From a virus (taxonomy: Duplodnaviria > Caudoviricetes), in the IMG/VR virus record IMGVR_UViG_3300023210_000042, positions 1-54,745 of that record: a stretch of 54,745 nt of DNA; one strand, given 5' to 3'. Below the pieces are notes generated by a model. It saw nothing but the letters and a program-made list of their open reading frames with translations. It was not told the DNA's origin and did not search any database. Shown here in pieces: positions 3,152 to 54,536 of the stretch (position 1 is the first letter of the stretch; each line of letters begins with the position of its first letter). The position numbers and the translations under genes are program-made.

Positions 3152-3442
3152 ATGGCAGATAAAAGCAAAATGGCCTGCAATAAACCAAGGACCTCTGACA
3201 GAGCTGGTAAAAAGAAAATGGTAAAAGCTTGTGAGGGCGGAAAGGAAAAGCTAATTCACTTTGGTGCGAAAGGTTATGGACACAACTATTCAGCAGCTGC
3301 ACGAAAGAGTTTTAAGGCACGTCACAAGTGCGGAACAGCAAAATCAAAACTAACAGCACGCTATTGGGCATGCAAGAATTTATGGGCCGGTAAGGGTGGT
3401 TCAACAAAGTCATCCCCAAAAACTCGTAAAGGAAAATATTAG
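3152..3442 (+). CDS. small basic viral protein (IHFG...SFKARHKC...YWACK.LW motif)
   Basis: 96 aa, very basic; motif recognisable from aquatic virus hypothetical proteins. Confidence 0.75.
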   Translation: MADKSKMACNKPRTSDRAGKKKMVKACEGGKEKLIHFGAKGYGHNYSAAARKSFKARHKCGTAKSKLTARYWACKNLWAGKGGSTKSSPKTRKGKY

Positions 3443-18408: not shown

Positions 18409-18487
18409 GAAGTGTTCATAATAATAAAGGAGCTGATTACTCCAACCAATCAAGAAGAGGCTGCAGAAATGCATCCTCTTTTTTTTT
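18409..18487 (+). ncRNA. candidate small RNA (~75-80 nt)
   Basis: Bounded by a promoter and an intrinsic terminator; no ORF inside; internal GGAG/CTCC hairpin. Confidence 0.5.
18455..18487 (+). terminator. intrinsic terminator
   Basis: AAGAGG-C-TGCA-GAAA-TGCA-T-CCTCTT followed by T7. Confidence 0.85.
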
Positions 18488-18490
18488 ACT

Positions 18491-18498: not shown

Positions 18499-18516
18499 TA
18501 TTAAATAAATTAACAG

Positions 18517-19551
18517 ATGAGCATAATAAATTCAGTACGAGAAACTGTACTGTCAGTTCTTAATAAAAATAACTATGGGTACATAACTCCTAGTGATTTT
18601 AATTTATATGCCAAGCAAGCTCAGCTAGATATTTTTGAAGATTATTTCTATCAATATAATTATCAAGTTACTAAAGAGAATGCTCGGCAATCAGGAGTTG
18701 GATTGGCAGATATAAAACAAATATATCAAGACGCTATAGAGATATTTTCAGAGCAAGAGTTTCTTGTTCCAGTATATCTTAATGGCGCTAGTGAGGTTAT
18801 TGTTTCTCCATCCGCAACATCTACTTACAGTGCACCTACAACAGCTACCACAGGCTCTGACTATTATTTAATAAATAAAGTTTTACTACTAACAAGATAC
18901 TTAGTTGATAATAGTACTAATACATTATCATTTACTCAAGAGTTGGTTGATAACACTAAAAACTTTTTTGCGTTAGGAGTTCAGCCAGGTGATGTTGTTG
19001 TAAATTTAGACACTGGAGATACAGCTAATGTTAGGTATTTAAGCCCATCGGCTACCGACACCTTGACATTAGATAGTAATATTTTTCCAAATGCAGGAGC
19101 TGAGTATACAATTCTTACGACTATGCAGGGTGTGAATGAATGTGAGAAAGTGACAAATAAAAAAATCACACAGCTTAACATGTCTAATCTAACCAAGCCT
19201 ACGGAGTTATTTCCGGCTTATTCTCAGAATGGAGAAGTTATACAGATATACCCTCAAAACTTTCAGTGGGGAGCAGGTGTAATAAACTCTGGATTAACAT
19301 CAGCCGGTAGAATTCTATGTCAGTATATTAGATACCCTAAAGACCCTAAGTGGACTTACGCTCAGTTAGTTGGAGGAGAACCTTCTTTTAACCAATCAGA
19401 TGCTCTTTATCAAGACTTTGAAATACCTCTTGAAGACGAACCTACATTAGTAAATAAGATATTACAATACGCAGGTATGTCAATTAGAGAGGTATCGGCA
19501 ATACAGTTTGGCCAGTCGATGGAGATGAGAGAAACACAAAATGAAAAATAA
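18517..19551 (+). CDS. head-tail adaptor/ring protein
   Basis: 344 aa; N-terminal LNKNNYGYITPSDFNLYAKQAQLDIF and C-terminal YIRYPKDPKW; position in the tail module. Confidence 0.65.
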   Translation: MSIINSVRETVLSVLNKNNYGYITPSDFNLYAKQAQLDIFEDYFYQYNYQVTKENARQSGVGLADIKQIYQDAIEIFSEQEFLVPVYLNGASEVIVSPSATSTYSAPTTATTGSDYYLINKVLLLTRYLVDNSTNTLSFTQELVDNTKNFFALGVQPGDVVVNLDTGDTANVRYLSPSATDTLTLDSNIFPNAGAEYTILTTMQGVNECEKVTNKKITQLNMSNLTKPTELFPAYSQNGEVIQIYPQNFQWGAGVINSGLTSAGRILCQYIRYPKDPKWTYAQLVGGEPSFNQSDALYQDFEIPLEDEPTLVNKILQYAGMSIREVSAIQFGQSMEMRETQNEK

Positions 19552-33900: not shown

Positions 33901-36900
33901 TCAATGGAGAGATTGCATATCTTCTAGAAAATAAAACATTAGCTCCAGACAACCAGAGAGCAAAGATAGAAGCTATATTTTCACCAGGCGTAGAGGTTGG
34001 TGATGTAAGAGCTGGATTATCTCAGTATGTAATTGACGGAAAGAGCTATAGCAAGCAAGACTTTTTAAAGAAGCTTGGTAAGATGAGCGCCAGTCAGTTG
34101 CTTAAGTTCAATGGCAAGGTTGCTAATGATGAAGAAGTTGCTAACCAATTAAAAGATAAAATAGATGCCGTTCAAAAGCCAGAAACAGAGGGCGTGGATG
34201 CACGCCAACAAACCGGAGATAGCCAAGGAGTGGGAACAGGAGTACCCATCCAAGAAACCACAGAACTTGAGACCACCGAAACGGAACAAGTAGCTAGTCC
34301 AATACAGGATAACCTACAGGATAATGAGACTGTTGTTCAAACAGAAGAAGATGCAAAGGGTAGAGTATTCACTACAACTAAACAGGAATCTGTAAGAGAG
34401 CGTGATGGAATGAAAGTCACCAAGTTTAAGTTCAACAGAAGCGATAAAGCAACGGACCAAAGAAATGATTCATTCGTTTCTGAAGAGGTAGCATTAGCGG
34501 ATACTAATTATGAAATTAATCCTGAAGATAGACTAAACCTTCAAGAAGGTGAGACGGCTACTTATGAAATAAATGAAATAAGAGAGGGAGATACAGGAGT
34601 AGGTGCTTCGGTAAAGTTTACAACAATTGATGCTGATGGAAATAAGATAGGCAGCTTTCAAGGTGATGTAACATTAGTTGAGAAACCTGAGGTTGATAGA
34701 AAAAAAGAACGTAATATTGCAAATACAAATGAAAACACAAATGAAAAAACAAACCCAGAAGTTGCAGCAGGAAACAGACTCTTTAGTGAGCCCTTACAGG
34801 AAGCAACAGAAATTGAAGCTAGAGTTAAAGAGAGAACTGGAATTGATACGCCAAAGGGTGAGAGAATAACGAAGCTAGACGAAGAGCGTTCAAATAGAAT
34901 ATCAGAAGCATACGAAAAGCAAGAGTCAAATCCTAATGACCCTGAAGTACAGGCATCCTATAAGGCTTTGATAGATGAAACTATAGCTCAGTATGAAGAT
35001 ATAATAGCTAATGGATATACATTAGAGATGAGTGACACAGAGTATAAAAACTCTTCTGATATGATTTCAGACCTCAGAGACAACAAGACCATGAGGATAT
35101 TCTCAACAGAGGAAGGCTTTGGTTTTGAGGGTATTACCGATGCAGATAGAGCATCTAATCCAATGTTAGCTCCAACAAGTTTTAAAGACAAGAATGGGAA
35201 ACCCCTTTTAGCTAATGATGTATTCAGGTTTGTTCATGACTTTTTTGGACACTCTACAGAAGGGAATAGCTTTGGCCCAATAGGTGAAGAGAATGCTTGG
35301 AATGTTCACTCCAGAATGTACTCTCCTGTAGCTAGAAGAGCAATGACAACTGAGACTAGAGGTCAGAACTCTTGGGTTAATTTTTCAGGCGTTAATGAAA
35401 AAGCTTTTGCTTTAAGGGATGAGGCTAGAGCATTAAGGAAAGAAGGTAAGTTCGAGGAGGCAGAAGCTAAAGTAAAAGAGGCTTATGACACGATGAAATT
35501 TGCTGAGCAAAAAGTAATGCTACTTCCTGAAGAGTTTACTTTATTACCTGAAGAAACTCCTGAAGGTATAGCTCTAGCACAAGAGGTAGCAGACTTAGAG
35601 GCTTCGATTGAGAACCCATCTCAATTTCAACTTGATGATACTAGTATAACTCCAGAAAGAAAGAAGGCTCTAGAAGATAGAGCTCTTAAGTTAATGGAAA
35701 AAGTTCAGCCTGAGCTTAGTGAAAAATCATTCACAGTTGAGGAGACTAACCTACCAACAACACCTATAGTTGTTACAGAAAATACCAAGCTTGCAAATAA
35801 GGTTGGTAAGATGTCCGTTAAAGACTTACAAGACAAGCGAATCAATCTTGTTATGGCTGACCTTTTAAAGGTTGACGAGAAAAGAATGGGTGGAGCTTTC
35901 TTTGGATTACAAGAAGGTATATATGGGAAACAAATAGCATGGGCCTCTATAACGCCTCCTGCAGCTAGGAATATTATAAGAGGGTCTATTAACTCAGACT
36001 ATACTGTGGTGTATATGATGAAACCAGAAGCGGTTGACTCTAATGTTGTACTATTAGATACCTTAACCGATAAAATAAAGCAGTCTCCAAATAGAAAGGC
36101 CATCTTCAATGCAATGATGAAGCACTTATCTATTAACAAATTTGGAAAGAAAACTGAGGTAGTAAACAATATAGGTAAGAATTCAAAGACGTTAGTAGAA
36201 TTTACAGTAGAGTTTGAAAAGCTAGACGTTGATACAAAAGCAAAAATATTTAAAACTGTGCTTCCAAGGGCTGGCGTAAATGCTGGTACTGACGTTGGTA
36301 AATTATTTCAAGCAGAGGGTATATCCCAAGAGTCTGTTCGTGAAGAAAACCTAGAGCAGTTTGCTAAGGACCTACCTATGGGGTCTATGACTATGGTTTT
36401 AAAAATCACAGACAGCAGCGGTAATAAAATAACTAAAAACAATATTGACGATGCAATTGTTATGCCTGAACAGCAGAGAGCTGAGGATATTAAGGAGCAT
36501 AGAAACTATCCTGTATATATAAGAGGTGAGGTGGTAGCTATGCTATCAGATACTGTTCCTTTCTGGGCGGTTAACAAGAATATTCTTAGCACTATAGACG
36601 CTAAGATAGATGGACTAATTAAAACTAAAACAACGGAAAAGGAAAGAAGTAAAGGAGCAGCAGATACAAAACCCACTACAGCTAGACAAGCAAGAGGTGG
36701 TGCAATGAGAACAGCTTCTATGTCGGCAGGAAATTCTTTTGTTGTACAGCCATCATCTAAAACTAATTACGAAAAGTTTATTTCAAAATTAACGAAGTCG
36801 TTTCCTAACACAGAGGTTGTAACAGACCAAAAAGAATTTGATAATTTAGTGTCTGACCTAAGTGCTAAAGCGTTAATGACTAAGAATCAAAAAGTTTATG

Positions 36901-39900
36901 GTGCAGTTTACAATGGCAAGCTATACCTAAACCCTGCTCTTGAAAATTACGACACGCCTGTTCATGAATTCGGTCACTTGTGGTTAAACACTGCTAAAGA
37001 GTTAGCTCCTGATACATATAAAAAAGGTCTATCTCTAATTGAAGGAACAGAGTATGAGGCTGCCGTAAGAAACAGTGAGGCTTACCAGCAAGTTATTAAG
37101 CAGATGATTGCAGATGGAGCAACTGAAACTGAAATTAACGAATACATTCTTGAAGAAGCCCTTGCCACTGCAATAGGAAACAAGGGAGATTCATTCGCTA
37201 GTGCAGCGCAAAAGAAAAACTTTAGGGCTTGGTTGAATGAGTTGTTTGATTTTATTAAAAAATTAACAGGTATATCTAAGCTTACACCAGAACAGATACA
37301 AGACTTATCTCTTGATGAGTTTACTGATGCTGTAGTAGTAGACTTGTTGTCAGAAAACAAGGCGTTTGAAAATGCGGAGACAGCTGTGCTCTCAGACTCA
37401 CTTCAGTTAATGACTACATCTAATTCTTCAATGACTGATATAATTAATATGTCTAGAGATAAAGGATTCTCAGACGCATCTATTAAACAAGTTTTAAAAG
37501 GGAGAGGCTTCAAGGTTGCGGATATAACCACAGCAATGGAGGTAAACGTAGATGCATTTACTCAGTTACCAGAAGCGTTTGGTAGAGTAGAAGGTGGTGT
37601 CAAGGAAGGAATGCAGTTGTTTAAGGATGTAAGAGAGAGCTTGTCTAAGTTTGTTACTCCAGAGAAAACATTATCTGATGTGAGACAAAAGGCAATGGAT
37701 TTAATTAAAGAGAATCCAATCTACAAAGCTCAGCCAGAACAAACTCAGATGGAGATTCTAGTGGACTTTGACAAGACATTGGACACACGTTCTAATGTTG
37801 CTGTGCAAAAAGAAATAGCTGCGATTAAAAACAACCTAAGACAGCGTAAGATTAATAGTCAGAACCTGAAAGCTGCACAGATACAGCTGAGAAACTATAT
37901 AAGAAAGGCTCTACCAAAATCTAAGACATATACTCAGGCACAAATAAACAAGCTTATATCACGTGTAACCAAGTCTACAGTGGATACATTCCAGGCAGAC
38001 ACTGAGTATATAATGAATATTGTAGACCAGCAGAAAGTTAAGATGAAGAATGCTCTTGTCAAGGACATGCTTAAACTAGTGAAAGCAAAAGCCATGACTG
38101 CATTTACTAAGTCTGGTAAGCGTAGAGCTAAAGGATTAAGTAAGGAAGGTACAGCTTACTTCAAAGCTGTTAAGCAGATACTTACAGCTGATGTAGATGC
38201 CCTTAACAAAATACAAGAGGACCTACAAAGTGAAAGCTCAGAGATTAATAATCTTATAGAGAAACAACAAGACGGACAGAAACTAACTCAGATAGAGCAG
38301 GCTAAAGTAAATCTTGCGTTAGCTATGGATACCTTTGGTGATGTATCTAACATGAGCCTTGAAGAGGTTCAGGACTTAATGCAGCAGCTTAAAGATGTTA
38401 GAGCTGAATCAATTGCTACCTTTAAATCAAGAAGACTAGCAAGAGTAGAAGCAAACAAGAAGATGAAAGAGGAGGCTGATAATCAGATTAAGGATACCAA
38501 TCCAATGCTGTTTGATGCTGACGGAAATGTTTTAAATAGAAATGAGCGTAATGCTAGAAGGAATGAGATACTATCACACTTCAGAAATTTTGAGATAGGT
38601 AAAGGGCTTTCATCTTTATCTGAAAGAATGAAGTTTAGCACAGCTAAAGACTTTATCCAGAACATGAAGCAGATGTTCCAGCATTTAGGAACATTAAGCA
38701 ATGTACTAGATAGGGTAACGCAGGGTAAAAACTTTTTTACCAAGAATATTTACGATGCTCTAAATAGAATGGATGACCTTAACAACGGAGGTTTATTTCA
38801 AACTCAAAAGAAGCTTGATGATATAGCTAACACAATACCTGGTATAACTAAAGGAGTAAAACAGATATACTCTAAACTAAATAGCGGTGTTCATATTTTA
38901 AAATTAAAACGTAGTGACACTGGACGAGAGTATACTGATAGGTTTAATGCAGATGAACTCATGCGTATATATGCGCTTAGCTTGAATGATACTCAAAGAC
39001 AAAAGCTTGAAGCTCAGGGTATAACTCCTGAGGTTATAGAGAATATTAAAAGTATCATAGGTCCAGAAGCTGTAGAGTTTACTGACAAAACTGTAAACTT
39101 CTTAAGCAATGAATACTATGAGAGTGTTAACGATGTATACTCATACGTTAATGATGTTAACTTAGGATATGTAAATAACTACTTCCCAACATCAACGATA
39201 CAGAAAGAGACCACCAAAAAAATGATTACTGATGGTGATTTCAATGGTGTGTTCAATGCGGAATCTGCTCCTGCTTTTAAAGAAAGGGTAGACATGAGGT
39301 CTGATGTAGACCTACACGCAGGAACGTTCACAACTGTTCTTAAGAATCATGTTGATACAATGGAGAAATATAAAGCGTATGCTGTAGGCACACAGAGACT
39401 GAATGCTTTATTTAAGATTGACTCTGTTAATGTATTGCTAGAAGAGATGGGTGTAACTGCTCCAATTAAAAAGGCTGTTAACTTTGCTATTAATCCAGAC
39501 TCTGGAAAGGATGCAAGTCTAAGTGTAAAACTTATAGCACGATTACAGACTCAGTTTACAGGATTTGCTCTAGCCTTTAAAGCTATACAGATACTTAAGC
39601 AGGCTACTTCATTTGTTAATGCTTACTCTGACTATAGTTATTTCTCTTCCGATTCTAAAGTTCCTAGAGTAGTACAGGCGGCAGTTGATTTACCTATGTT
39701 TATGTTTGATGGCGCAAGAGTTGCTTTATCGTTAGGTAAAGATTTAGTTGGAAAAAAAGGAGCTGTAAGAGAGGCGATGGAGATATCACCTACATTTAGA
39801 AAAAGGGTTGAGCAAGGACTTGAGGGTGATGTATATGGGTTAGAATCTGGCTCGCAAACATTTAAGAAGACTGCACTTACTGGAGGTAAACTTAAAAGAG

Positions 39901-40889
39901 CACAAGCTGCGTTTAAAACTGCAGCAGCTTCACCAACAATAATTGGTGATGTCTTAGGAGTTATGGGTTACATGATTAACTACAAGCGTAACATTGCCAA
40001 TGGAATGAGTAAGGCTGATGCTGTAAAAGCTTTTAATGATTACAATGCTACACAGCAATCACGAAGAGGTACAGATAAAATTCCGCTTCAAATGAACAGC
40101 AATATATTTAATCGTGCATTTACCATGTTTGGTAGTACATTATTCCTGCAGATGAATAAAGTTATGCAGAGCACTACTAACATTACTAGAGACATATCTA
40201 ACAAGAAAAGGCCACGTTCAAAAGACACTAGAGATTTAGCTTTGAACTTAGCTGTAGCCAACGTGTTGTTTGTAGGTGTATCTAACATAGCTAAATTTGT
40301 TAAGGGGGATGACGAGGATAAAGAGGCGGCACTCAAGAAAATGGCTGAAGCAATGATGGGATTAAATCTTATCTATCAAATACCATTCTTAGGCTCTACA
40401 ATAGAGGGGTTTGATGTGGCAGGTAGAACAATATCTGCTGTCAAAGGAGAAGAGTATAAGCAGAAAGGTAGAATCTTTAATGATGATATCGTCAATCCTG
40501 TTGCTAGTGTGATACAAAAGTACAGAAAGCTTACTAAGAATGATGAGAATAAAGTCGGAGCTGTAGTAAGAGCATTAACTGAGATTACAATAGGCGCACA
40601 GCTTGACCCATTTATTGGTTTATATAATTACTTTGCAGGTGAAGAAGAGGACGTAGACCCAGCAATGTATGATGTACTTGGTATATCTCCATCTTACCGA
40701 CCTAAGAATGAGGGTGGTGAAACAAAATCAATGAGCAAGTCAGATATGAAAAAATTTATGCCAGGGGTTTATGAAGATTTGTATGGGCCTGGAGGAAGCT
40801 TAGAGCCTATCGAACAGATAAAGAAAGACGAGAGAAAAAGAAAGCGTGACCTTCAGAAAGAGATAGACGCAGCTATGGGTCTTGATTAA
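30927..40889 (+). CDS. giant internal virion/polyvalent protein with zincin-like motifs
   Basis: 3320 aa, no Cys; Gly/Ala-rich membrane-like segment; HDFFGH (35235-35252) and HEFGH (36963-36977) plus downstream EEALA. Confidence 0.75.
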   Translation: MNEQALIDSFELFQQEGYNGTIDDFKKLMANNDNALNDMFGLFVDQGYRKSKEDYAVLIGAQPPKTVKKKDTSESTLDDGLLEQFNIDDYTKKEKPDFREELLLKVQDNTRMPREATLKNPPIQSPKLQGEPVDMAQVLADINAETRTTEEIRQQEMDAFLKQEKLDQEAALEQAKINQALLTQSEGFQNDLAAINADLIGQENQDVIPLLKQKFQKYGFTFEESGMGDGVLVTNFDGTQTIDIDLDPFTTSTEILESQKLKNFLSQHALEEFETNELLDFEGQSAKAQDLRRIGRINPNGTTSTVLMTSYEEDGKHYAIPTLFPKNPEWYGSSSGDWMQLDFQEAKKVAEERGEVFQFDTEEEAQRFAEGAWKDTHSTDAVGKKIYSEVGLNFKSEKEKYDEYLKVRDEVDFIENEMGITFSGQDLKAKGLERRLDQLSEEEQKKFGSLYVNGQLRDDFREVIKELSKRENELYDEVNTEELIALREKYDLTLQKKYSAIAKDASRANYEAMAFEDALQVQSLQTFGVRLEDLTDIEAKTEEEAQILDKFKVQKVSLNAEKQHAANIYEAAKTFYSSKYDKTIMDEFEEGASAVYSELRKGLNDGNASEIILQLSTGLAFDFQSLDLDNEEDRKKAAEMIVALKTKNRDKKDSKALSRWNRAEGFRESMDAFLRNPAETALAFAANSIGMMAPYGMEIVTGTTATSAGIGAGLGATGFVTGPGGVLTTTGGAIAGGTKGLKAGFALTALAMEYTNEYFAAMEAEGYDVLNAKDVELAMQDEDVWALAKERGLKRGIPIAMVDYLTAGLAGRIFKVGKVATRTKKIASQLAERFVLDPIGEMAGEAAAQVAVGDELDFKEIAAEGIGGFGNNSSMMVVNKLIDARNMSNIELASKLTDINYLVNEKESDTRISAWTNNMVELGKINEDQGQRIQKNLGLSKDADNMLDFGSGKNKPKNKIVKARLMELLSAKEEYSADTNRREVFGQKIKDINGEIAYLLENKTLAPDNQRAKIEAIFSPGVEVGDVRAGLSQYVIDGKSYSKQDFLKKLGKMSASQLLKFNGKVANDEEVANQLKDKIDAVQKPETEGVDARQQTGDSQGVGTGVPIQETTELETTETEQVASPIQDNLQDNETVVQTEEDAKGRVFTTTKQESVRERDGMKVTKFKFNRSDKATDQRNDSFVSEEVALADTNYEINPEDRLNLQEGETATYEINEIREGDTGVGASVKFTTIDADGNKIGSFQGDVTLVEKPEVDRKKERNIANTNENTNEKTNPEVAAGNRLFSEPLQEATEIEARVKERTGIDTPKGERITKLDEERSNRISEAYEKQESNPNDPEVQASYKALIDETIAQYEDIIANGYTLEMSDTEYKNSSDMISDLRDNKTMRIFSTEEGFGFEGITDADRASNPMLAPTSFKDKNGKPLLANDVFRFVHDFFGHSTEGNSFGPIGEENAWNVHSRMYSPVARRAMTTETRGQNSWVNFSGVNEKAFALRDEARALRKEGKFEEAEAKVKEAYDTMKFAEQKVMLLPEEFTLLPEETPEGIALAQEVADLEASIENPSQFQLDDTSITPERKKALEDRALKLMEKVQPELSEKSFTVEETNLPTTPIVVTENTKLANKVGKMSVKDLQDKRINLVMADLLKVDEKRMGGAFFGLQEGIYGKQIAWASITPPAARNIIRGSINSDYTVVYMMKPEAVDSNVVLLDTLTDKIKQSPNRKAIFNAMMKHLSINKFGKKTEVVNNIGKNSKTLVEFTVEFEKLDVDTKAKIFKTVLPRAGVNAGTDVGKLFQAEGISQESVREENLEQFAKDLPMGSMTMVLKITDSSGNKITKNNIDDAIVMPEQQRAEDIKEHRNYPVYIRGEVVAMLSDTVPFWAVNKNILSTIDAKIDGLIKTKTTEKERSKGAADTKPTTARQARGGAMRTASMSAGNSFVVQPSSKTNYEKFISKLTKSFPNTEVVTDQKEFDNLVSDLSAKALMTKNQKVYGAVYNGKLYLNPALENYDTPVHEFGHLWLNTAKELAPDTYKKGLSLIEGTEYEAAVRNSEAYQQVIKQMIADGATETEINEYILEEALATAIGNKGDSFASAAQKKNFRAWLNELFDFIKKLTGISKLTPEQIQDLSLDEFTDAVVVDLLSENKAFENAETAVLSDSLQLMTTSNSSMTDIINMSRDKGFSDASIKQVLKGRGFKVADITTAMEVNVDAFTQLPEAFGRVEGGVKEGMQLFKDVRESLSKFVTPEKTLSDVRQKAMDLIKENPIYKAQPEQTQMEILVDFDKTLDTRSNVAVQKEIAAIKNNLRQRKINSQNLKAAQIQLRNYIRKALPKSKTYTQAQINKLISRVTKSTVDTFQADTEYIMNIVDQQKVKMKNALVKDMLKLVKAKAMTAFTKSGKRRAKGLSKEGTAYFKAVKQILTADVDALNKIQEDLQSESSEINNLIEKQQDGQKLTQIEQAKVNLALAMDTFGDVSNMSLEEVQDLMQQLKDVRAESIATFKSRRLARVEANKKMKEEADNQIKDTNPMLFDADGNVLNRNERNARRNEILSHFRNFEIGKGLSSLSERMKFSTAKDFIQNMKQMFQHLGTLSNVLDRVTQGKNFFTKNIYDALNRMDDLNNGGLFQTQKKLDDIANTIPGITKGVKQIYSKLNSGVHILKLKRSDTGREYTDRFNADELMRIYALSLNDTQRQKLEAQGITPEVIENIKSIIGPEAVEFTDKTVNFLSNEYYESVNDVYSYVNDVNLGYVNNYFPTSTIQKETTKKMITDGDFNGVFNAESAPAFKERVDMRSDVDLHAGTFTTVLKNHVDTMEKYKAYAVGTQRLNALFKIDSVNVLLEEMGVTAPIKKAVNFAINPDSGKDASLSVKLIARLQTQFTGFALAFKAIQILKQATSFVNAYSDYSYFSSDSKVPRVVQAAVDLPMFMFDGARVALSLGKDLVGKKGAVREAMEISPTFRKRVEQGLEGDVYGLESGSQTFKKTALTGGKLKRAQAAFKTAAASPTIIGDVLGVMGYMINYKRNIANGMSKADAVKAFNDYNATQQSRRGTDKIPLQMNSNIFNRAFTMFGSTLFLQMNKVMQSTTNITRDISNKKRPRSKDTRDLALNLAVANVLFVGVSNIAKFVKGDDEDKEAALKKMAEAMMGLNLIYQIPFLGSTIEGFDVAGRTISAVKGEEYKQKGRIFNDDIVNPVASVIQKYRKLTKNDENKVGAVVRALTEITIGAQLDPFIGLYNYFAGEEEDVDPAMYDVLGISPSYRPKNEGGETKSMSKSDMKKFMPGVYEDLYGPGGSLEPIEQIKKDERKRKRDLQKEIDAAMGLD

Positions 40890-41260
40890 TAATACCTAGC
40901 GTACTTAAAAGTTTTTTGCTTTGGGTACTGCACAACTAGCTCTGAGTTTAGTTCTGTAGTGCCCATCCAAGATACAGTTCCGTATATTTCTTTTACCTTA
41001 CCATACATAATACCATCTTCACAGGCCCATATTATAACTGGATTCAATCTTTTTAATGTAAGCTGAGATAGTTTGTTTAATGATACTGCTAGTGGATAGC
41101 AGTCAGTTACCTTTTTTTTTGTAGGTATTACCAGCACAAAAGCTATAAGATTATTTTCTTTATCGTATACCCTGAAATCTACATCGTCAGGACCAAGCTT
41201 CTTATAGCTGCCACTAAACCTTTCGGTAAATTTATTTATTGCCTTTACCTTTTCGGTCAT
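40886..41260 (-). CDS. hypothetical protein, possibly a degenerate PD-(D/E)XK fold
   Basis: Start reassigned to ATG 41260 (TAATG overlap); DVDFRVY...IAFVLV lacks the ExK. Confidence 0.55.
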   Translation of the reverse strand: MTEKVKAINKFTERFSGSYKKLGPDDVDFRVYDKENNLIAFVLVIPTKKKVTDCYPLAVSLNKLSQLTLKRLNPVIIWACEDGIMYGKVKEIYGTVSWMGTTELNSELVVQYPKQKTFKYARYY

Positions 41261-41979
41261 TACAATTCCATGAGTCTGTTTATAGCTGTGTGTCCACCAA
41301 TCACAACCCCACATCCTATCGCTTGTTTCTTAAAGTTCTTTGCGTATGCAGCAGCATAAGCTGTGCTATCTACGCCACACCCCACCTGCATTCCAAACAC
41401 CTTGAAGTTTCTTCCAACCATCCACTCGGTATATGCTTGTGTATGTATGTGTCCCTGAACTGTGGACATCATGTCATTCTTTGATTTAGTTCTAGCTGTC
41501 CCACCTTCTCCATGTACGTATTGTACACCATCATACACGACTCTATCAACCCAGTTCCAGTTAGTTCCAAGAACTTCGTTGTAGGATTTAATCCAGCGTT
41601 TAGGTATCTGAGAATCAAAAGCTTTGCGCATTATTATTCTGTCATGGTTTCCTATACACACATCTGCTACAGGAAACTCTTCAACCCACTTCTGCACCTC
41701 CTGTATAGCATAGTCTAGTTCATCTCCACCACCCATACCATCAGGGTCTGTAGCGTGAAAAGAACTGTAGTGGTTGTCAATTATATCACCAATGAATATT
41801 ACTTGGTTGCAGTTGTATTTAGCATAGGTGTCCTTACAGAAATCAAAGTATTCTGGAAGTTCAAAGGGAGCGTGTATATCTCCAATCACCAGAATTCTTT
41901 TTTCTTTTTGAGTCAGGTTATCAAATGCTGCTTTCCTGTTGCCACTTAGTCGTGGTCTAAAATCTTTTCTATAAGTCAT
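41260..41979 (-). CDS. calcineurin-like metallophosphoesterase
   Basis: GDIH, IGDIID, GNHD, HG and GHIH motifs. Confidence 0.9.
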   Translation of the reverse strand: MTYRKDFRPRLSGNRKAAFDNLTQKEKRILVIGDIHAPFELPEYFDFCKDTYAKYNCNQVIFIGDIIDNHYSSFHATDPDGMGGGDELDYAIQEVQKWVEEFPVADVCIGNHDRIIMRKAFDSQIPKRWIKSYNEVLGTNWNWVDRVVYDGVQYVHGEGGTARTKSKNDMMSTVQGHIHTQAYTEWMVGRNFKVFGMQVGCGVDSTAYAAAYAKNFKKQAIGCGVVIGGHTAINRLMEL

Positions 41980-49230: not shown

Positions 49231-49842
49231 CTATATTGATTTAGCTATTTCTTTTTTCACATCATTAGTCATGGCATACTTGGTCTTTAGCTCTTCGCCT
49301 ATAACCTTAAGGCCTTTGCTTTTGTTAGCTATAACATACTTAAGCACCTTATCCCAGTTGTCATCACCAATATTTAATTCTATGGTGTTCTGTCTTTTTG
49401 GCATAGGCTTCTTAGCAACCGGCTTCTTAGCCACTGTGTTTGATTCTCCATTAGGCAAGTCCTCGCCTGCATACACATACAATCCTAGTCCATGTCTAGC
49501 GATTGCTTTAGTTAAGCTACGCTGTATGGTTTTGTTTACATCAACAGACGTAATCTTATCAAGCATAATTGAATTGTTTCTGAAGTCCATAACTGGAAGG
49601 TATTCAATATGCTCTTGCTCTTGGATTGTTACTCCAGTTTTTACCCATGCAGACTTACCATCTGTATGGTAGAACATTCCATTAATATCCTCATAGATTG
49701 TGTAGGTGGCCTTTGGATAGTTCTTCTTAACCTCTGCCCATGCCCACGCCCATGATAGATACGTTAGGTTGCTCTTCTTTTCTACCTTGTCATTTACATT
49801 GATAGAGTTCAATGTCTCGAAAACTGATTTTGAATTACTCAT
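49231..49842 (-). CDS. Sak-like (Rad52-type, DUF1071) ssDNA-annealing protein
   Basis: VEKKSNLTYLSWAWAW, LPVMDFRN and VNKTIQRSLTKAIARHGLGLYVYAGEDLP. Confidence 0.85.
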   Translation of the reverse strand: MSNSKSVFETLNSINVNDKVEKKSNLTYLSWAWAWAEVKKNYPKATYTIYEDINGMFYHTDGKSAWVKTGVTIQEQEHIEYLPVMDFRNNSIMLDKITSVDVNKTIQRSLTKAIARHGLGLYVYAGEDLPNGESNTVAKKPVAKKPMPKRQNTIELNIGDDNWDKVLKYVIANKSKGLKVIGEELKTKYAMTNDVKKEIAKSI

Positions 49843-50245
49843 AATTTAGTGATTTTAATTTATCGTTTATTTTTTTATACATGTTTAGAATTCTCTCCCT
49901 GTGAGTCTTGAGGTGTTGAATCTGTTTTGGATTTTGTTTGGTGTTCATCTCATCCTTAATCCTCTGCTCTATCCGATTTAATTTATCATGATAGGTTTCA
50001 ATGCAGAGTTTATAGACTCCATGTCTCCATCCTTTATCTACAAATTCCCACTCTGAATCATAACTTATATCCTTGTAGTAGTCACCACCCATTGCTGTGT
50101 TCTGTATCATTATATTACCGGTGTCGTTTTCTCTGGTAATCTTACAGCCATGTAGCATTCTGGACTCGTACCCATCACCATCCAAGATGGCAGCCTTGTC
50201 ATCATTTAGTGCTTCCTCAAAGACACTACTTAAAGAGTTATACAT
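49835..50245 (-). CDS. hypothetical protein
   Basis: 136 aa, coupled ORF with C-terminal coiled coil. Confidence 0.65.
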   Translation of the reverse strand: MYNSLSSVFEEALNDDKAAILDGDGYESRMLHGCKITRENDTGNIMIQNTAMGGDYYKDISYDSEWEFVDKGWRHGVYKLCIETYHDKLNRIEQRIKDEMNTKQNPKQIQHLKTHRERILNMYKKINDKLKSLNYE

Positions 50246-50761: not shown

Positions 50762-50793
50762 CAAATTTAATAAATGTTTATGAATTGTCCAAA
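50762..50793 (-). promoter_or_regulatory. Bacteroidota sigma-A-type promoter (TTTG-N20-TAAATTTG)
   Basis: Full -33/-7 consensus with 20-nt spacer, upstream of ATG 50739. Confidence 0.8.
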
Positions 50794-51410
50794 ACTTTTT
50801 TATTTAATTCTTCCAAAGTCTCAGCAATTCTGCCCTCTTCCAGTGGCTCATAAGCCAGGTAATAACCTGCAGGAAAAGTCTGTTCTGGAGTAACATGGTC
50901 AGATAGTAGCACCATGTATTCTACTCCATTAACTTCAACAATATCTTCTGATATCTCTGGCAAATCCCATGAGAAAGAATGTATACATTCTCCGTTCTGG
51001 TACTCTTCTTCTGCGCCAAATCCTTGCTCTTCTTCCCAGGTCCAGATAAAATCTGGCAATTTCTTGGTTAGTAAATAAAGAACATCAAAGTTGAAAGGTG
51101 ACCACGCTGTAGTAAAATGTAAAGTCCCTTGGACCTCATAATAATGGTTGTCATAGCAACCCCACTTAGTACCCCAGTTTCTATAGCACCAGTCGTACCA
51201 GTTGTCGTAACCATACAAGTCTTTCAATCTGTCAGACTCTTCTCTTGATATATTTTCTGGTATTCGCTCTGGACTTGTTGTTCCTGTCAACTCCTTAGGC
51301 ATTGGTTTTACGTATCCACATATTCCGTATTCGGTTTTGGATATTTCTTTTAATACTTTACGACCTTTGTCTGTCGTAGCTTTGATTATGTGATAAACGT
51401 GATTAGGCAT
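50778..51410 (-). CDS. DUF1281/Api92-like (YubB ferredoxin-like) protein
   Basis: MPNH...NWYDWCYRNWGTKWG...FTTAWSP. Start reassigned to ATG 51410. Confidence 0.75.
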   Translation of the reverse strand: MPNHVYHIIKATTDKGRKVLKEISKTEYGICGYVKPMPKELTGTTSPERIPENISREESDRLKDLYGYDNWYDWCYRNWGTKWGCYDNHYYEVQGTLHFTTAWSPFNFDVLYLLTKKLPDFIWTWEEEQGFGAEEEYQNGECIHSFSWDLPEISEDIVEVNGVEYMVLLSDHVTPEQTFPAGYYLAYEPLEEGRIAETLEELNKKVLDNS

Positions 51411-51561
51411 AATTATTTTTTTTAAGTGATTCAATTTCTTTTCTAGCATCTATTAGGTCTAGCTTTGTTTGGACTAACTCATCCTCATCTTTCGCTAACT
51501 GAATTTCAAGTGCACTTATCCTTGCTTCAAGGTAGTCCACTAAGGTTTCTTCTGTGCTCAT
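51403..51561 (-). CDS. small coiled-coil protein (52 aa)
   Basis: Manually translated: MSTEETLVDYLEARISALEIQL...; ATGA overlap with the upstream gene. Confidence 0.6.
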   Translation of the reverse strand: MSTEETLVDYLEARISALEIQLAKDEDELVQTKLDLIDARKEIESLKKNNYA

Positions 51562-51764: not shown

Positions 51765-51792
51765 AATAAAATAAATTTAGTGGCTTTCGCCT

Positions 51793-51850
51793 GATTAAGA
51801 GAGTAGGAAAACTCCTACCCTTTCGACTACTAAAGTCTCATCAGTTAATC
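51793..51850 (-). ncRNA. hammerhead ribozyme, type I (copy 1)
   Basis: GAUUAA-CUGAUGA-GACU(UUAGU)AGUC-GAA-AGGGUAGGA(GUUU)UCCUACUCU-C^UUAAUC. Full core; CUC triplet; predicted cut 51799/51798. Confidence 0.93.
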
Positions 51851-51860
51851 TAAAGTTCGA

Positions 51861-51892
51861 CAAATGTAAAACTTAATTTCGACATATCCAAA
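51861..51892 (-). promoter_or_regulatory. Bacteroidota sigma-A-type promoter (TTTG-N20-TACATTTG)
   Basis: Full consensus; the -7 element ends 10 nt before hammerhead 1. Confidence 0.8.
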
Positions 51893-51894
51893 TA

Positions 51895-51912
51895 TACTAT
51901 GCATGCATAGTA
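51895..51912. promoter_or_regulatory. perfect 18-bp palindrome, possible operator
   Basis: TACTATGCATGCATAGTA, 2 nt upstream of the -33 element. Confidence 0.5.
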
Positions 51913-51915
51913 AAT

Positions 51916-52059
51916 TTACTTCCAACCATTCTCTAATTTAATTTTCTGCCACCACGTTAGCTGTTGGTATTCTAATTCTGTGTAGATATGCACTCTATTT
52001 TTCTGGTCCACGATTGCGTGTAGTCCAGTCGGCAGAATTTTGTGTTGCTTAATTTTCAT
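51916..52059 (-). CDS. small hypothetical protein (47 aa)
   Basis: Manually translated: MKIKQHKILPTGLHAIVDQKNRVHIY...; ATGA overlap. Confidence 0.6.
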   Translation of the reverse strand: MKIKQHKILPTGLHAIVDQKNRVHIYTELEYQQLTWWQKIKLENGWK

Positions 52060-52316
52060 AAGTGCCCTCCTATCTTGTCTACTTCGTATCTGTACTCACA
52101 TGGTTGGTCTTTGTCTGTCCAGTTATAGTCAGTGTCCATTCCAAAACCATACTCATAGTCAGTGGCTCTCATCTGGTCTTCGAGTTGCTCAACCCATAAC
52201 TCTTCGTGTTCATTCACGTAGTCTTGTACATCAAACTCATCAACAGAATCTGGTATTTCGATTTCGATTGTTGCTACTTTGTAGTACACATTTCGCTGTA
52301 AAATTTTTACTTTCAT
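52056..52316 (-). CDS. acidic hypothetical early protein
   Basis: Start reassigned to ATG 52316 (MKVKILQ), because the ORF-track start lies inside the ribozyme. Confidence 0.7.
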   Translation of the reverse strand: MKVKILQRNVYYKVATIEIEIPDSVDEFDVQDYVNEHEELWVEQLEDQMRATDYEYGFGMDTDYNWTDKDQPCEYRYEVDKIGGHL

Positions 52317-52429
52317 AATAAATAATTTAATGATTAAGACAGCTATGCAAATAGATTGCACAACTGTTTCGGATACTGAATCCTCATCAGTTAATCTTTA
52401 CTTTCATTATAAATTATTTAATTGATTAA
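52302..52429 (-). repeat. imperfect ~36-nt direct repeat flanking hammerhead 2
   Basis: TTAATCAATTAAATAATTTATAATGAAAGTAAAGATT (52429-52393) versus TTAATCATTAAATTATTTATTATGAAAGTAAAAATT (52337-52302). Confidence 0.7.
52332..52396 (-). ncRNA. hammerhead ribozyme, type I (copy 2)
   Basis: GAUUAA-CUGAUGA-GGAU(UCAGU)AUCC-GAA-ACAGUUGUGCAA(UCUAU)UUGCAUAGCUGU-C^UUAAUC. GUC triplet; predicted cut 52338/52337. Confidence 0.95.
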
Positions 52430-52583
52430 TACTCTCTGAGAAATCTACTCCAGCTATCAAGTTATTATCAAAGCAATAGTGTTCCATAACATCTCCATCA
52501 CTATCTAAGATATCATAACAACACTTATCACAAGTTTTGTACTCTGTGGTATGCGTGTTTAAATTTAGTTTATTGTTTTTCAT
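52407..52583 (-). CDS. small Cys-containing protein (58 aa)
   Basis: Manually translated: MKNNKLN...CDKCCYD...HYCFD...NNL. Confidence 0.6.
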   Translation of the reverse strand: MKNNKLNLNTHTTEYKTCDKCCYDILDSDGDVMEHYCFDNNLIAGVDFSESINQLNNL

Positions 52584-52600
52584 AATATCTTCCCATTTTG

Positions 52601-52771
52601 TTAATTGTTTATTAGTTCATAAATTAAATCTATTATCTCGCCATCTGTGGCTCTCTCGCCATCAATTTCTATTAGATGGTTAATGGCTTCGATGACCCTC
52701 ATCATGCCAAATCCCTCTGCTATCTCTCTTGAGTTACCGAGGTCTATTAATTTTTCTGCTTGTTCTTTCAT
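52601..52771 (-). CDS. small acidic protein (56 aa)
   Basis: Manually translated: MKEQAEKLIDLGNSREIAEG...TDGEIIDLIYELINN. Confidence 0.6.
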   Translation of the reverse strand: MKEQAEKLIDLGNSREIAEGFGMMRVIEAINHLIEIDGERATDGEIIDLIYELINN

Positions 52772-52804
52772 CGTTAATATTTTTTAGTTGTTTATAATTT
52801 AGCA

Positions 52805-53056
52805 TTAAGAATATACATGACCAAACTCTTCCAGTTTTTCTTTGGCTTCATGGTACATGCGTAGGTATTTTATACGCATCTGAAGGTGTTCAATATCCTT
52901 GAGTCCGAAGGCATCTTCGTCTGGACTTTCGTCCAGAGTTTCTTGATAACCTTGGATATCATAGTAGTTCCAGTCGTAATTTTTATCGTCTGGATATCCG
53001 TTGTTGAGGTTGAAGTATTCCACTATCAACTTCTGTGCTTTGTGGTTTGCTTTCAT
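52805..53056 (-). CDS. hypothetical early protein
   Basis: 83 aa ORF. Confidence 0.65.
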   Translation of the reverse strand: MKANHKAQKLIVEYFNLNNGYPDDKNYDWNYYDIQGYQETLDESPDEDAFGLKDIEHLQMRIKYLRMYHEAKEKLEEFGHVYS

Positions 53057-53057
53057 C

Positions 53058-53399
53058 TTAAATTGTTTTATAAAGTTCGTGTAAATTTCCCACTGGGTTA
53101 TCTGCTTTAGCTAGTGCTTTACGCTTCATGTCGGCAGTCAGTCGTTTTATCCCATTGCTTTCCTTGTAGGCACGAAGATAAGTTCTTTCTTTGTCCTCAA
53201 TCAAGTCACCCACTAACTTCTGCATGCATGACCTAAATCGGTAGGACTCCCACGTTCTGTTGTAGTATCTTACCTTGGATTCAGCAATAAAGTTTCCGTT
53301 AGCATAAAGTTCAGACTTGTGTCCCCATGCTCGACTTGTGTCCCACCCACGACTTAATATTTCGTAAGTGATTCCGTTAATTTCTTTTGTGTGTTTCAT
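53058..53399 (-). CDS. hypothetical early protein
   Basis: 113 aa; KVRYYNRTWESYRF motif. Confidence 0.7.
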   Translation of the reverse strand: MKHTKEINGITYEILSRGWDTSRAWGHKSELYANGNFIAESKVRYYNRTWESYRFRSCMQKLVGDLIEDKERTYLRAYKESNGIKRLTADMKRKALAKADNPVGNLHELYKTI

Positions 53400-53409
53400 G
53401 ATGATGTTT

Positions 53410-53697
53410 TTAGTAGGCCGAAGGAACGAATACTGGTAGGCCTTGGTTAAAATTATAATCTACTTCCATAAGTTCAGCAAACATCTGGCTTAGCTCTACA
53501 GCTACCTTTGTTAGCTCTGGATTACCTTGCCAGTTGTGTATGGTGCAGTCGTTCTGGATGCTACCAAGCATCCCACCCCCAAGGTAGTTGCAATAGGTTG
53601 TCATCTTCTGGTCATCATAGCCAAAAGGAGTTAGGCTAATTTCAATACCACCACCTCGTGATGTAATTTTTTCTCTTAAGATTTCAAATTGTCTCAT
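53410..53697 (-). CDS. hypothetical early protein
   Basis: 95 aa; NYLGGGMLGSI motif; first gene after hammerhead 3. Confidence 0.7.
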   Translation of the reverse strand: MRQFEILREKITSRGGGIEISLTPFGYDDQKMTTYCNYLGGGMLGSIQNDCTIHNWQGNPELTKVAVELSQMFAELMEVDYNFNQGLPVFVPSAY

Positions 53698-53713
53698 AAT
53701 AATAATTTTTAAT

Positions 53714-53767
53714 GATTAAGACCACCTGTGAAGGTGGTTTCGACTATTGAAGTCTCATCAGTTAATC
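53714..53767 (-). ncRNA. hammerhead ribozyme, type I (copy 3)
   Basis: GAUUAA-CUGAUGA-GACU(UCAAU)AGUC-GAA-ACCACCU(UCAC)AGGUGGU-C^UUAAUC. GUC triplet; predicted cut 53720/53719. Confidence 0.95.
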
Positions 53768-54085
53768 TTCGATGTGCTCAAGAATTTCATCTATCGCATA
53801 CTCAATCCATTCGTACTCAAGGTCATCAACGTATATGATATACTCTTCATCAGTCTGGTGATAATTGTCTTTTATAACCTCTTCAAGTCGTTCAGATAGG
53901 TCGCTGTCATAGTAGAAAACATCATCCTCAATATTCAATTGTGTATCTGGCTCATGTGCCACGAAGACCTCATAACCATCAGCAGTGCTCTGGCTATAGA
54001 TTGCATAGTCTGGTCTATTGTAGTCATCAGTCAATTTAAAATTGAAATGGTCTTGTACTTTTTTTAATTTACTTTCGTAGTTCAT
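53762..54085 (-). CDS. acidic hypothetical early protein
   Basis: 107 aa; its last codons GAU UAA form stem I of hammerhead 3. Confidence 0.75.
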   Translation of the reverse strand: MNYESKLKKVQDHFNFKLTDDYNRPDYAIYSQSTADGYEVFVAHEPDTQLNIEDDVFYYDSDLSERLEEVIKDNYHQTDEEYIIYVDDLEYEWIEYAIDEILEHIED

Positions 54086-54091
54086 AATGTT

Positions 54092-54313
54092 CTAATATTT
54101 TGACAGAATTTCTCTGTCGTTTTCTAATTGCTTTTCACTTAATGCGTTCATCATTGGTGTCGTGTCTTTATCCCACGAATAAAACTGACTGTCGTTTGTT
54201 TCGTCAATACATCTTATTGATGTAACCTCGCTTGAAAGAAATTTGTCTCTCTCAATAACATCGAGAACCCTAATCCAATCATCCGTCATAACATCTAATA
54301 TAAATCTTGCCAT
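54092..54313 (-). CDS. hypothetical early protein
   Basis: Start reassigned to ATG 54313 (MARFILDV). Confidence 0.65.
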   Translation of the reverse strand: MARFILDVMTDDWIRVLDVIERDKFLSSEVTSIRCIDETNDSQFYSWDKDTTPMMNALSEKQLENDREILSKY

Positions 54314-54317
54314 AATT

Positions 54318-54467
54318 TTAGTTATTAAATATTCCAATTGTTTTGTACCCTCTGGACTCCATAAAGTCTATGTAGTTGTTTAGGTGTTGTTCGTCATTAA
54401 ATTCTTTTGTTATAGTCTTGTACGTCTTGTACCAATGACTTTTCATAGATAGTGTTTTTGTTATCAT
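54318..54467 (-). CDS. small hypothetical protein (49 aa)
   Basis: Manually translated: MITKTLSMKSHWYKTYKTITKEFNDEQHLNNYI...; first gene after hammerhead 4. Confidence 0.65.
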   Translation of the reverse strand: MITKTLSMKSHWYKTYKTITKEFNDEQHLNNYIDFMESRGYKTIGIFNN

Positions 54468-54480
54468 AATTATAATTTTT

Positions 54481-54536
54481 AAGATTAAGACGCACCGAAG
54501 TGCGTTTCGACCTGTAAGGTCTCATCAGTTAATCTT
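54481..54536 (-). ncRNA. hammerhead ribozyme, type I (copy 4)
   Basis: AAGAUUAA-CUGAUGA-GACC(UUACA)GGUC-GAA-ACGCAC(UUCG)GUGCGU-C^UUAAUCUU. cUUCGg loop; predicted cut 54489/54488. Confidence 0.96.

Follow-up and report, generated by a model that had tools for sequence, protein, structure and literature searches.

The phage genome record IMGVR_UViG_3300023210_000042 (Duplodnaviria; Caudoviricetes), whose full 54,745 bp are referred to here as the window, carries four hammerhead motifs on the minus strand, within a block of small genes. Judged from their sequences and from those of their relatives, the four motifs are almost certainly genuine ribozymes under selection. It seems likely that at least four functional type I hammerheads are transcribed together with the minus-strand small-gene block and split its polycistronic message; with somewhat less assurance, we would assign them the role of separating cistrons and insulating them for expression. 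Transcription, cleavage in vivo, and an effect on RNA stability or translation are what we infer from the DNA. The initial annotation had left open whether this organization is new. It is not, as multi-hammerhead arrangements in prophages as well as the processing hypothesis are already in print (Perreault et al., 2011; PMC3088659). The concept is unchanged, and it is the question of what hammerheads do in phages that is sharpened.

We scanned the window with a descriptor that combines CUGANGA, a hairpin for stem II, GAAA, a stem III whose closing pair is A15.1-U16.1, H17, and 4 bp or more in stem I. Exactly four matches were obtained, all on the minus strand as first described, compared with a mean of 0.005 matches in 200 dinucleotide shuffles of the window, one of which contained one match. 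The 14-mer GATTAACTGATGAG occurs four times exactly, again always on the minus strand, and with up to two mismatches it gives five matches vs. a shuffle mean of 0.66. The core CUGAUGA ... GAA A...U C is complete in all four copies, as are G10.1-C11.1, A15.1-U16.1, and C17, and the pairs 10.1-11.1, 1.1-2.1, and 15.1-16.1, which adjoin the core, are G-C, A-U, and A-U throughout; standard pairs adjoining the core serve as the hammerhead criterion in the text of Perreault et al. (PMC3088659). The topology is that of type I in every case, i.e., stem I is open and stems II and III are loop-closed, with 6-8 bp in stem I, 4 bp in stem II, and 6-12 bp in stem III, and for copies 1 and 2 the hammerhead fold is also the minimum-free-energy fold. 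The helices had been read correctly at the outset: stem II has 4 bp, a 5-nt loop, and the sequences originally given in every copy, stem III comprises 9, 12, 7, and 6 bp in ascending coordinate order, a C-G to G-C swap next to the core is present in the copy at 51850 (hammerhead 4, where G-C adjoins A15.1-U16.1, as against C-G in the other three), and the predicted cuts lie 34, 21, 22, and 21 nt before an AUG. Four copies are found in the window, but this number is a lower bound only, because the record ends 209 nt upstream of copy 1 and a close relative with nine copies, G001, has three more of them upstream of its copy 1 orthologue.

The claim that the copies show covariation within one genome was overstated, since they are four paralogues with unrelated stems III; selection on the helices is nevertheless supported by orthologues and by the wider family. 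Two close uncultured relatives, G001 (51 kb, 85% complete) and G002 (58 kb, 96% complete), share genes of the block at 85-97% protein identity. Nine hammerheads lie within 4.3 kb in G001, and three of the four in G002 are situated where its record begins and one where it ends, so that the array spans the record's ends; a survey of related phages, as first proposed, thus gives 4 or more, nine, and four copies for the window phage, G001, and G002, respectively. Positional orthologues exist for window copies 2, 3, and 4. In these three orthologous sets (window, G001, and G002), none of the 30 core columns and none of the 36 stem I columns varies, compared with one of three at N7. All four changes in true stems preserve pairing (U.G to C-G, U-A to U.G, G.U to A-U, and A-U to G.U), and the other changes are confined to loops. 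The copy 2 orthologue in G001 differs in loop III only, those of copy 3 in G001 and G002 show pair-preserving differences, and those of copy 4 have a change at N7, a G.U replaced by A-U, and loop differences; here, two columns counted by the script as stem III are in fact the tetraloop. At the sequence level, this conservation is direct evidence that copies 2-4 are kept functional, because the 66 core and stem I positions are invariant while the flanking DNA is 11-24% divergent among the three phages; by a rough estimate, the chance of zero change in these 66 positions is about 1e-7.

The window copies are members of a larger phage family, which was collected from IMG/VR contigs with the pattern TTAACTGATGAG-N(10-16)-CGAAA-N(8-38)-TCTTAA. 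At least 120 stretches matched; the family figures given here rest on the 120 loci among the matches listed, and the pattern itself imposes the inner UUAA of stem I on at least one copy per locus. The descriptor scan detects 182 hammerheads in 108 of these 120 loci, with one copy in 66 loci and two to six in 42, and the copies of a multi-copy locus always share one strand and are separated by hundreds of bases. Among the listed members, stem I has exactly 6 bp in 167 of 182 (GGUUAA in 111 and GAUUAA, as in the window, in 25), an A stands 5' of stem I in 93%, and A also occupies the first and second positions after stem I in 86% and 77%, respectively. Stem-loop II comprises 13 nt in 164 members, and its loop follows the consensus U-N-A-N-U. 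Cleavage would take place at C17 in 171 members, and stem III ranges from 14 to 64 nt. As the pattern sets no pairing demand on stems II and III, pairing can be checked there free of circularity: stem II reaches at least 4 bp in 135 and stem III at least 5 bp in 142 of 147 pattern matches, compared with 13 and 5 after shuffling of the inner letters. Twelve of 15 pairs vary on both sides in an alignment of 41 members, and 13 of 15 do so among 135 distinct model-aligned members, with 99.7-99.8% of the cells paired. These two alignments were chosen or fitted with pairing in mind, which the shuffle test on the 147 matches avoids. Little or no variation is seen in G10.1-C11.1 and A15.1-U16.1, which agrees with the consensus for hammerheads in general.

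Beyond the helices, the base after stem I (+7) covaries with position 5 of loop II (A/U in 120 members and U/A in nine members from seven loci; Fisher test 2.6e-11, uncorrected for relatedness), and a third class with U,U,A,A is found in three members. Among the copies of the window phage, G001, and G002, stems I and II always occur in the same two combinations of length: eight copies combine 7-8 bp in stem I with 5 bp in stem II, and nine combine 6 bp with 4 bp. Hammerheads require a tertiary contact between loop II and stem I for fast cleavage at cellular Mg2+. The covariation may mean either that both helices lengthen jointly or that two tertiary pairs form across them, and both options fit equally well. 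When one genome per prokaryote species is searched with the same pattern, only 18 stretches are obtained, about ten of which come from Bacteroidota (Mucilaginibacter with three, Riemerella, Paraflavitalea, Niabella, and bins labelled Bacteroidaceae, Vicingaceae, and Bacteroidia), and several of the others are short contigs from metagenome bins with five to seven copies each. Contigs L132, L135, and L143, from metagenome-assembled genomes labelled 'Aliivibrio sp.' and 'Gammaproteobacteria bacterium', contain 5-7 family hammerheads in 2.7-5.8 kb and are probably misbinned phage fragments. Another pattern, the exact 14-mer plus CGAAA, has a sole match in viral contigs, which lies inside a 779-aa open reading frame (ORF) of contig L005 and is not a hammerhead.

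The Rfam search proposed in the initial annotation does not recover the array. At gathering score, Rfam 15 reports none of the four window copies, and in ten family loci holding at least 44 members it finds none of the copies either. Below threshold, Hammerhead_1 (RF00163) gives 24.5 bits for copy 1 only (cut-off 34) and RAGATH-1-hammerhead (RF03152) 28.8, 24.3, and 23.9 bits for copies 4, 2, and 1 (cut-off 56.3), so that three copies score between 23.9 and 28.8 bits; copy 3 (52396) has no Rfam match even at E<=10. Both models resemble the window copies in the core, in a similar stem II opening (CUGAUGAGACUU...CGAAAC...GUC), and in a short A/U-rich stem I, but scores stay below the cut-offs and a candidate for the 5' hairpin of RAGATH-1 is present before copy 4 only. 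A covariance model of the family, R1, was built from 41 sequences, all from other phages except window copy 1. Copy 1, being part of the training set, scores 66.4 bits, and the untrained copies 2, 3, and 4 reach 68.9 (E 2e-14), 57.6, and 53.3 bits, well above the next best score in the window of 18.8; all four fall within the family range of 34-78 bits. A standard Rfam scan misses this phage subfamily entirely, and its members therefore stay unannotated. One could take scores below the Rfam gathering level to mean that the motifs are inactive relics or hammerhead-like repeats. However, the core is complete in all four copies, the orthologues are under purifying selection, covariation in the family is strong, and the one degenerate look-alike of the window is easily distinguished, which makes relics extremely improbable. 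This look-alike (18506-18567, plus strand, 18.8 bits) is not a hammerhead, as its core reads CAGAUGA and stem II is missing; it overlaps with the start codon (ATG) of a structural gene and directly follows a strong terminator-like hairpin with a T-run (18452-18488, plus strand), which is located between structural genes of 250 and 344 aa.

The type I core with a selected structure, as first claimed, is thus borne out by covariation and by orthologues, and a fixed spacing to the AUG supports it as well. In 177 of the 182 listed members, the ATG of an ORF of at least 30 aa lies within 150 nt of the cut, with a peak at 19-23 nt and a mode of about 22. The proteins encoded downstream are small (median about 70 aa) and mutually unrelated, 181 of them falling into 137 clusters, and the four in the window match none of the other downstream proteins of the family. 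Leaders in the family are rich in A and poor in G; position -3 is A in 81% of them and positions -11 to -13 in 71-77%, and a Shine-Dalgarno-like word occurs in only 25 of 162. According to a study on Flavobacterium johnsoniae (PMC6847099), this bacterium does not use Shine-Dalgarno pairing, and initiation is tuned by mRNA structure and A at -3; the composition of the family leaders matches such Shine-Dalgarno-less initiation in Bacteroidota. In the window (Table 1), the leaders of hammerheads 1 and 2 share a 19-nt stretch with 95% identity (repeat D10). The GTG start listed at 52361 would run through hammerhead 3 and is probably not used. The GGC-GAAA-GCC leader type of hammerhead 4 recurs twice in G001 (near 4895 and 8712) and in G002 (near 1883), before unrelated genes, and a 5'-proximal hairpin of this kind might protect or position the released mRNA.

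Table 1. Hammerheads, leaders, and adjoining elements in the window (ORF sizes refer to the ORF opened by the AUG).
Feature	Position	Strand	Details
Hammerhead 1 (type I)	54481..54536	-	stem I 8 bp; stem II GACC/GGUC; stem III 6 bp, UUCG loop
Hammerhead 1, predicted cut	C17 at 54489; 3' product begins 54488	-	
Leader after hammerhead 1	54468..54488	-	21 nt, A/U-rich; AUG 54467, 49-aa ORF
Hammerhead 2	53714..53767	-	stem I 6 bp; stem II GACU/AGUC; stem III 7 bp; C17 53720
Leader after hammerhead 2	53698..53719	-	22 nt; AUG 53697, 95-aa ORF
Hammerhead 3	52332..52396	-	stem I 6 bp; stem II GGAU/AUCC; stem III 12 bp; C17 52338
Leader after hammerhead 3	52317..52337	-	21 nt; AUG 52316, 86-aa ORF
Hammerhead 4	51793..51850	-	stem I 6 bp; stem II GACU/AGUC; stem III 9 bp; C17 51799
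Leader after hammerhead 4	51765..51798	-	34 nt, small GGC-GAAA-GCC hairpin; AUG 51764, 68-aa ORF
Promoter-like match TTTG-N20-TACATTTG	51861..51892	-	ends 10 nt before stem I of hammerhead 4
28-nt near-perfect palindrome (inverted repeat I2)	51890..51917		directly after the stop of a 47-aa ORF, before hammerhead 4

The motifs were first described as intergenic. Two of them are not strictly so, because the TAA stop of the upstream ORF and the sense codon before it form the 5' strand of stem I in copy 1 (38-aa ORF 54645-54529) and in copy 2 (107-aa ORF 54085-53762). This is a common arrangement in the family: among the 182 listed members, the stop of the upstream frame is a UAA inside stem I in 52 and a UGA inside the core in 25, and in the remaining members it mostly lies no more than 12 nt upstream. 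Where the upstream stop lies in stem I or core, as in 77 of the 182 listed members and two of the four window copies, terminating ribosomes must compete with folding. This would suit attenuators or timers, in which the cut exposes the flanking RNAs to decay or in which its rate is tuned by Mg2+, upstream translation, or a factor. Near-isoenergetic alternative folds in copies 3 and 4 are in line with such a role, and regulated cleavage of phage hammerheads was raised in the text of Perreault et al. (PMC3088659). In contrast, the long stable stem III and the conserved putative signature of tertiary contacts (A flanks and the U-N-A-N-U of loop II) look like a design for fast constitutive cleavage, and a leader that is optimized for initiation (few G residues, and A at -3 in 81%) would be pointless on a product bound for decay. 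Attenuation or timing as the main role is therefore unlikely in our opinion.

If cistron separation and insulation is the role of the array, each ribozyme would fold once the 3' strand of stem I is made and would cut after C17. The ribozyme body (stems II and III) would remain on the upstream RNA, which would retain its stop codon and acquire a G+C-rich 3' end of two hairpins with a 2',3'-cyclic phosphate. The weak, A/U-rich stem I would separate at once, and the products should part without delay because its duplex amounts to only about -2.1 kcal/mol. The downstream mRNA would be released with a 5'-OH and only six ribozyme nucleotides, as part of an unstructured, A-rich leader of 21-34 nt without Shine-Dalgarno sequence and with A at -3. 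In this way, units comprising 2-5 genes would arise from the polycistronic transcript, and each would start with a standard 5' end, insulated from whatever sequence and structure lie upstream. Such insulation should matter in Bacteroidota, whose ribosomes ignore the Shine-Dalgarno sequence and depend on an open initiation region. A specific rationale would be that, in hosts without Shine-Dalgarno pairing, freeing the initiation region from upstream structure matters more; tying the fixed spacing and the leader composition to Shine-Dalgarno-less translation would provide a concrete and testable reason for the presence of the ribozymes.

In T7, host RNase III cuts the polycistronic early mRNA between genes at double-stranded sites, leaving structured 3' ends upstream as well as 5'-phosphate and 3'-OH ends, whereas the RNA considered here would cut itself and leave 5'-OH and 2',3'-cyclic phosphate. 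Another system for comparison is RiboJ, which carries a small hairpin after the ribozyme and stays on the downstream RNA. It is an engineered ribozyme insulator that is placed before a gene and provides a defined 5' end independent of upstream sequence (PMC6206723). In the phages, leader type C likewise has a small hairpin, but a type I hammerhead leaves only six ribozyme nucleotides downstream.

The closest precedent is the work of Perreault et al. (2011). Its text reports hundreds of bacterial hammerheads, many of them in prophages, where multiple hammerheads flank single genes or short gene blocks of varying identity; it proposes that long phage transcripts are processed into gene- or operon-length mRNAs, and it describes three tandem arrangements that cleave in vitro and one that does so in E. 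coli (PMC3088659). The four window copies, which delimit blocks of 3, 5, and 2 ORFs, show the same multi-hammerhead phage arrangement: several hammerheads on one strand flank variable genes, and the processing hypothesis is the same. The examples described in that text come from prophages of Clostridium, Azorhizobium, and Agrobacterium and are of mixed types I-III, whereas type I only, in one stereotyped subfamily, is present here, in a lytic-type-looking podophage of Flavobacteriia with up to nine copies in a relative; this comparison refers to the text of Perreault et al. and not to the alignments of their Dataset S1. A hammerhead of the haloviruses HF1 and HF2, HHphage, is also treated there. 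Located in the region of the early genes, it precedes a start codon by 13 nt and heads a polycistronic transcript; the 5' end mapped for that transcript is no more than 3 nt away from the cut (PMC3088659). According to the same text, HHphage is a single copy from an archaeal virus with a variant core needing high Mg2+, unlike the several copies with a canonical core in the window. In a 2019 review (PMC6765202), the function of hammerheads in bacteria and phages is still considered unresolved. A literature search whose reach excluded most subscription journals and supplements found no hammerhead arrays in phages of Bacteroidota or Flavobacterium. Cleavage into units, the reading that Perreault et al. 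gave for prophage clusters, appears to be the most economical one for the window as well.

The gene block punctuated by the ribozymes differs in content among the three close phages. Two extra ORFs (56 and 58 aa) of the window end exactly at the 5' edge of copy 3, two extra ORFs of G002 end at the 5' edge of its copy 4 orthologue, and an extra ORF of G001 stands directly after the leader of its copy 1 orthologue. The single 73-aa ORF of the window is replaced in G001 by an ORF-hammerhead-ORF-hammerhead block ending in a hammerhead leader, and a 113-aa gene follows directly after a hammerhead in G002, whereas one other gene stands between them in the window and in G001. All five delimited differences in gene content have a boundary at most about 10 nt from a hammerhead edge or inside a leader (window 54461/54470, G001 6826, window 52398, G002 215, and window 51851). 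Copy number turns over fast between close relatives, and the gene indels adjoin ribozymes. As four of about 13 junctions carry a hammerhead, the chance that five of five events touch one is roughly estimated at 0.07, and the link between gene indels and hammerhead junctions is suggestive only.

The hammerhead together with its leader could thus mainly be a DNA-level junction of about 60-90 bp, used for cassette exchange by homologous recombination between co-infecting phages, with cleavage being secondary or, in a variant of this idea, serving only to make a newly joined gene expressible. Besides the five abutting differences, points in its favour are the copy numbers (4 or more, 9, and 4 in phages whose shared DNA is 84-89% identical), the start of the 3' product with UUAAUC in 17 of 17 copies of the three phages, and the reuse of three leader types before unrelated genes. 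Hammerhead 1 combines the flank of one G001 copy with the stem III of another. The 137 clusters among 181 downstream proteins would fit as well, and so would the finding that all 16 ORFs between 54743 and 50533 are without counterpart in the closest catalogued relative of the window phage, MW202828.1 (uncultured 'Podoviridae sp.' from a freshwater spring). An analogy exists in the PeSL promoter/stem-loop cassettes of T4-type phages, short conserved repeats between small variable genes of hyperplastic regions, where indels and replacements between close relatives occur (PMC2839356 and PMC4122927). PeSLs are promoter-terminator motifs and not ribozymes, however, and the connection between hammerheads and indels rests on five events in three genomes; whole-gene indels must end between genes anyway. 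In addition, a pure linker would need neither an intact core nor pair-preserving substitutions nor a free N7. Recombination as the primary function seems improbable to us, and it is compatible with cistron separation rather than opposed to it. A combination of the two, in which the hammerhead with its 21-34-nt leader would be a portable 'gene socket' of Bacteroidota phages, providing RNA-level insulation and a DNA-level junction for swapping cassettes, is put forward only tentatively and is rather doubtful at present. If true, it would explain copy numbers from 4 to 9 among phages that are 84-89% identical, and one RNA element would account for both expression and modular evolution of a hyperplastic gene region.

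The sequence of stem I is identical in all four window copies, and 70 of 125 within-locus pairs of the family have identical stems I, whereas 2000 permutations gave 48 on average and never more than 66. Taken as proof of interchangeable copies, this identity fails; the excess is real, yet genomes with mixed stem I sequences are common. The 5'-OH and 2',3'-cyclic phosphate are the ends used by RtcB-type ligases, and segments between cuts might be re-joined as circular or spliced RNA, ligated by the ribozyme or by a host RtcB-type ligase; because the stem I strands are shared, a segment could dock by its 5'-OH terminus on the ribozyme that it carries at the 3' terminus. The stem I identity would be expected from such re-joining, but a duplex of only -2.1 kcal/mol favours release, mixed stems I argue against it, and neither an RNA ligase nor a kinase is seen among the scanned window proteins, which are part of the ORFs (the Pfam scan left out 50778-51449, 49835-50245, 5594-8806, 30927-40889, and others). 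Spliced or circular products were sought and not found by Perreault et al., according to their text (PMC3088659). Re-joining of segments is very unlikely, by our estimate.

Several observations weigh against cleavage of an early message into insulated units. Descriptor scan and R1 detect no hammerhead in MW202828.1, and nine of ten cultured Bacteroidota phage records are without R1 match, i.e., Cellulophaga phi46:1, phi38:1, Calle_1, phi13:2, and phi46:3, Tenacibaculum Gundel_1, Maribacter Panino, Polaribacter Leef_1, and Bacteroides BT-TP2, although for five of them the empty answer carries little weight. Since MW202828.1 and these nine lack a match, the element is dispensable for phages of this kind. 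Rfam's curated thresholds are missed by every window copy, and for copies 3 and 4 the hammerhead fold lies 0.5 kcal/mol above the minimum free energy. Ribosomes ending the upstream ORF inside stem I of copies 1 and 2 could disturb folding. A 5'-OH need not stabilize RNA, as the product of the glmS ribozyme is degraded through its 5'-OH in Bacillus. The 'early' timing that was initially ascribed to the gene block would follow from gene order only.

The tenth cultured record, Flavobacterium phage vB_FspP_elemoA_7-9A, contains one family member among small genes (17288-17349, minus strand, 51.7 bits), and this locus is kept at 95.9-100% identity in 68 of 68 elemo records. The elemo phages, which grow on Flavobacterium strain BAL314, offer a cultured system in which a catalytically dead mutant can be compared with the wild type. 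Exactly over the elemoA_7-9A hammerhead, the RefSeq entry annotates a coding sequence of 35 aa, KNV10_gp68 (NC_055852.1, 17275-17382, plus strand; 3276-3383 of our locus L152), on the strand opposite to all its neighbours. It is probably a false gene call.

The record of the window phage is classed as linear and rated 91% complete in IMG/VR, with a G+C content of 36.5%. Genes recognized comprise those for the large terminase, portal protein, virion proteins, primase/helicase, helicase, a Sak-like annealing protein, exonuclease, amidase, and holin. The large terminase is 77.7% identical to that of MW202828.1, 45.7% identical to those of the Flavobacterium elemo podophages, and 32-41.5% identical to those of phages of Cellulophaga, Maribacter, and Tenacibaculum; because of these identities, the phage is assigned to the podophages of Flavobacteriia type, and it looks like one of lytic type. 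The minus strand carries every ORF from 54743 down to about 41000, and the hammerhead array sits in the small-ORF block upstream of the replication genes. Synteny with MW202828.1 begins only at a DnaA-HTH-like gene (50532-50230), and blastn of the hammerhead region against catalogued phages gives no match. Pfam and PHROGs assign no function to the small ORFs between the ribozymes, with one weak PHROG match (unknown function) and one sub-threshold Pfam match.

Upstream of hammerhead 4, the promoter-like match overlaps the palindrome (Table 1); G002 also has this palindrome, and there two extra ORFs separate it from the ribozyme. The promoter-like pattern, a Bacteroidetes-type consensus, matches seven times in the window vs. 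2.77 expected, with 3 of 100 shuffles reaching seven, and is weak evidence for a promoter at this place. A scan of the window for sigma-70 promoters finds 20 vs. 17.4 expected in shuffles, no better than chance. Upstream of hammerhead 3, 37 nt (52395-52431, i.e., the end of the 58-aa ORF plus ATGAAAGTAAAG) are 73% identical to 52304-52340 (repeat D2), which represents the leader and start of the gene downstream of hammerhead 3. The window-specific insertion of two genes ends exactly at this repeat, which may be a recombination scar or a product of chance in A/T-rich DNA.

Further genes of the window deserve mention. A calcineurin-like phosphoesterase is encoded at 41260-41979 on the minus strand (Pfam Metallophos, E 1.9e-07); some enzymes of this fold open 2',3'-cyclic phosphate RNA ends, the end type that hammerheads would leave. 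Close to the left end of the record, the minus strand also codes for a SET-domain protein (416-799; Pfam E 2.9e-12). The structural block closes with one plus-strand ORF of 3320 aa (30927-40889), and a still longer ORF is present at the corresponding position of MW202828.1 (741-12320).

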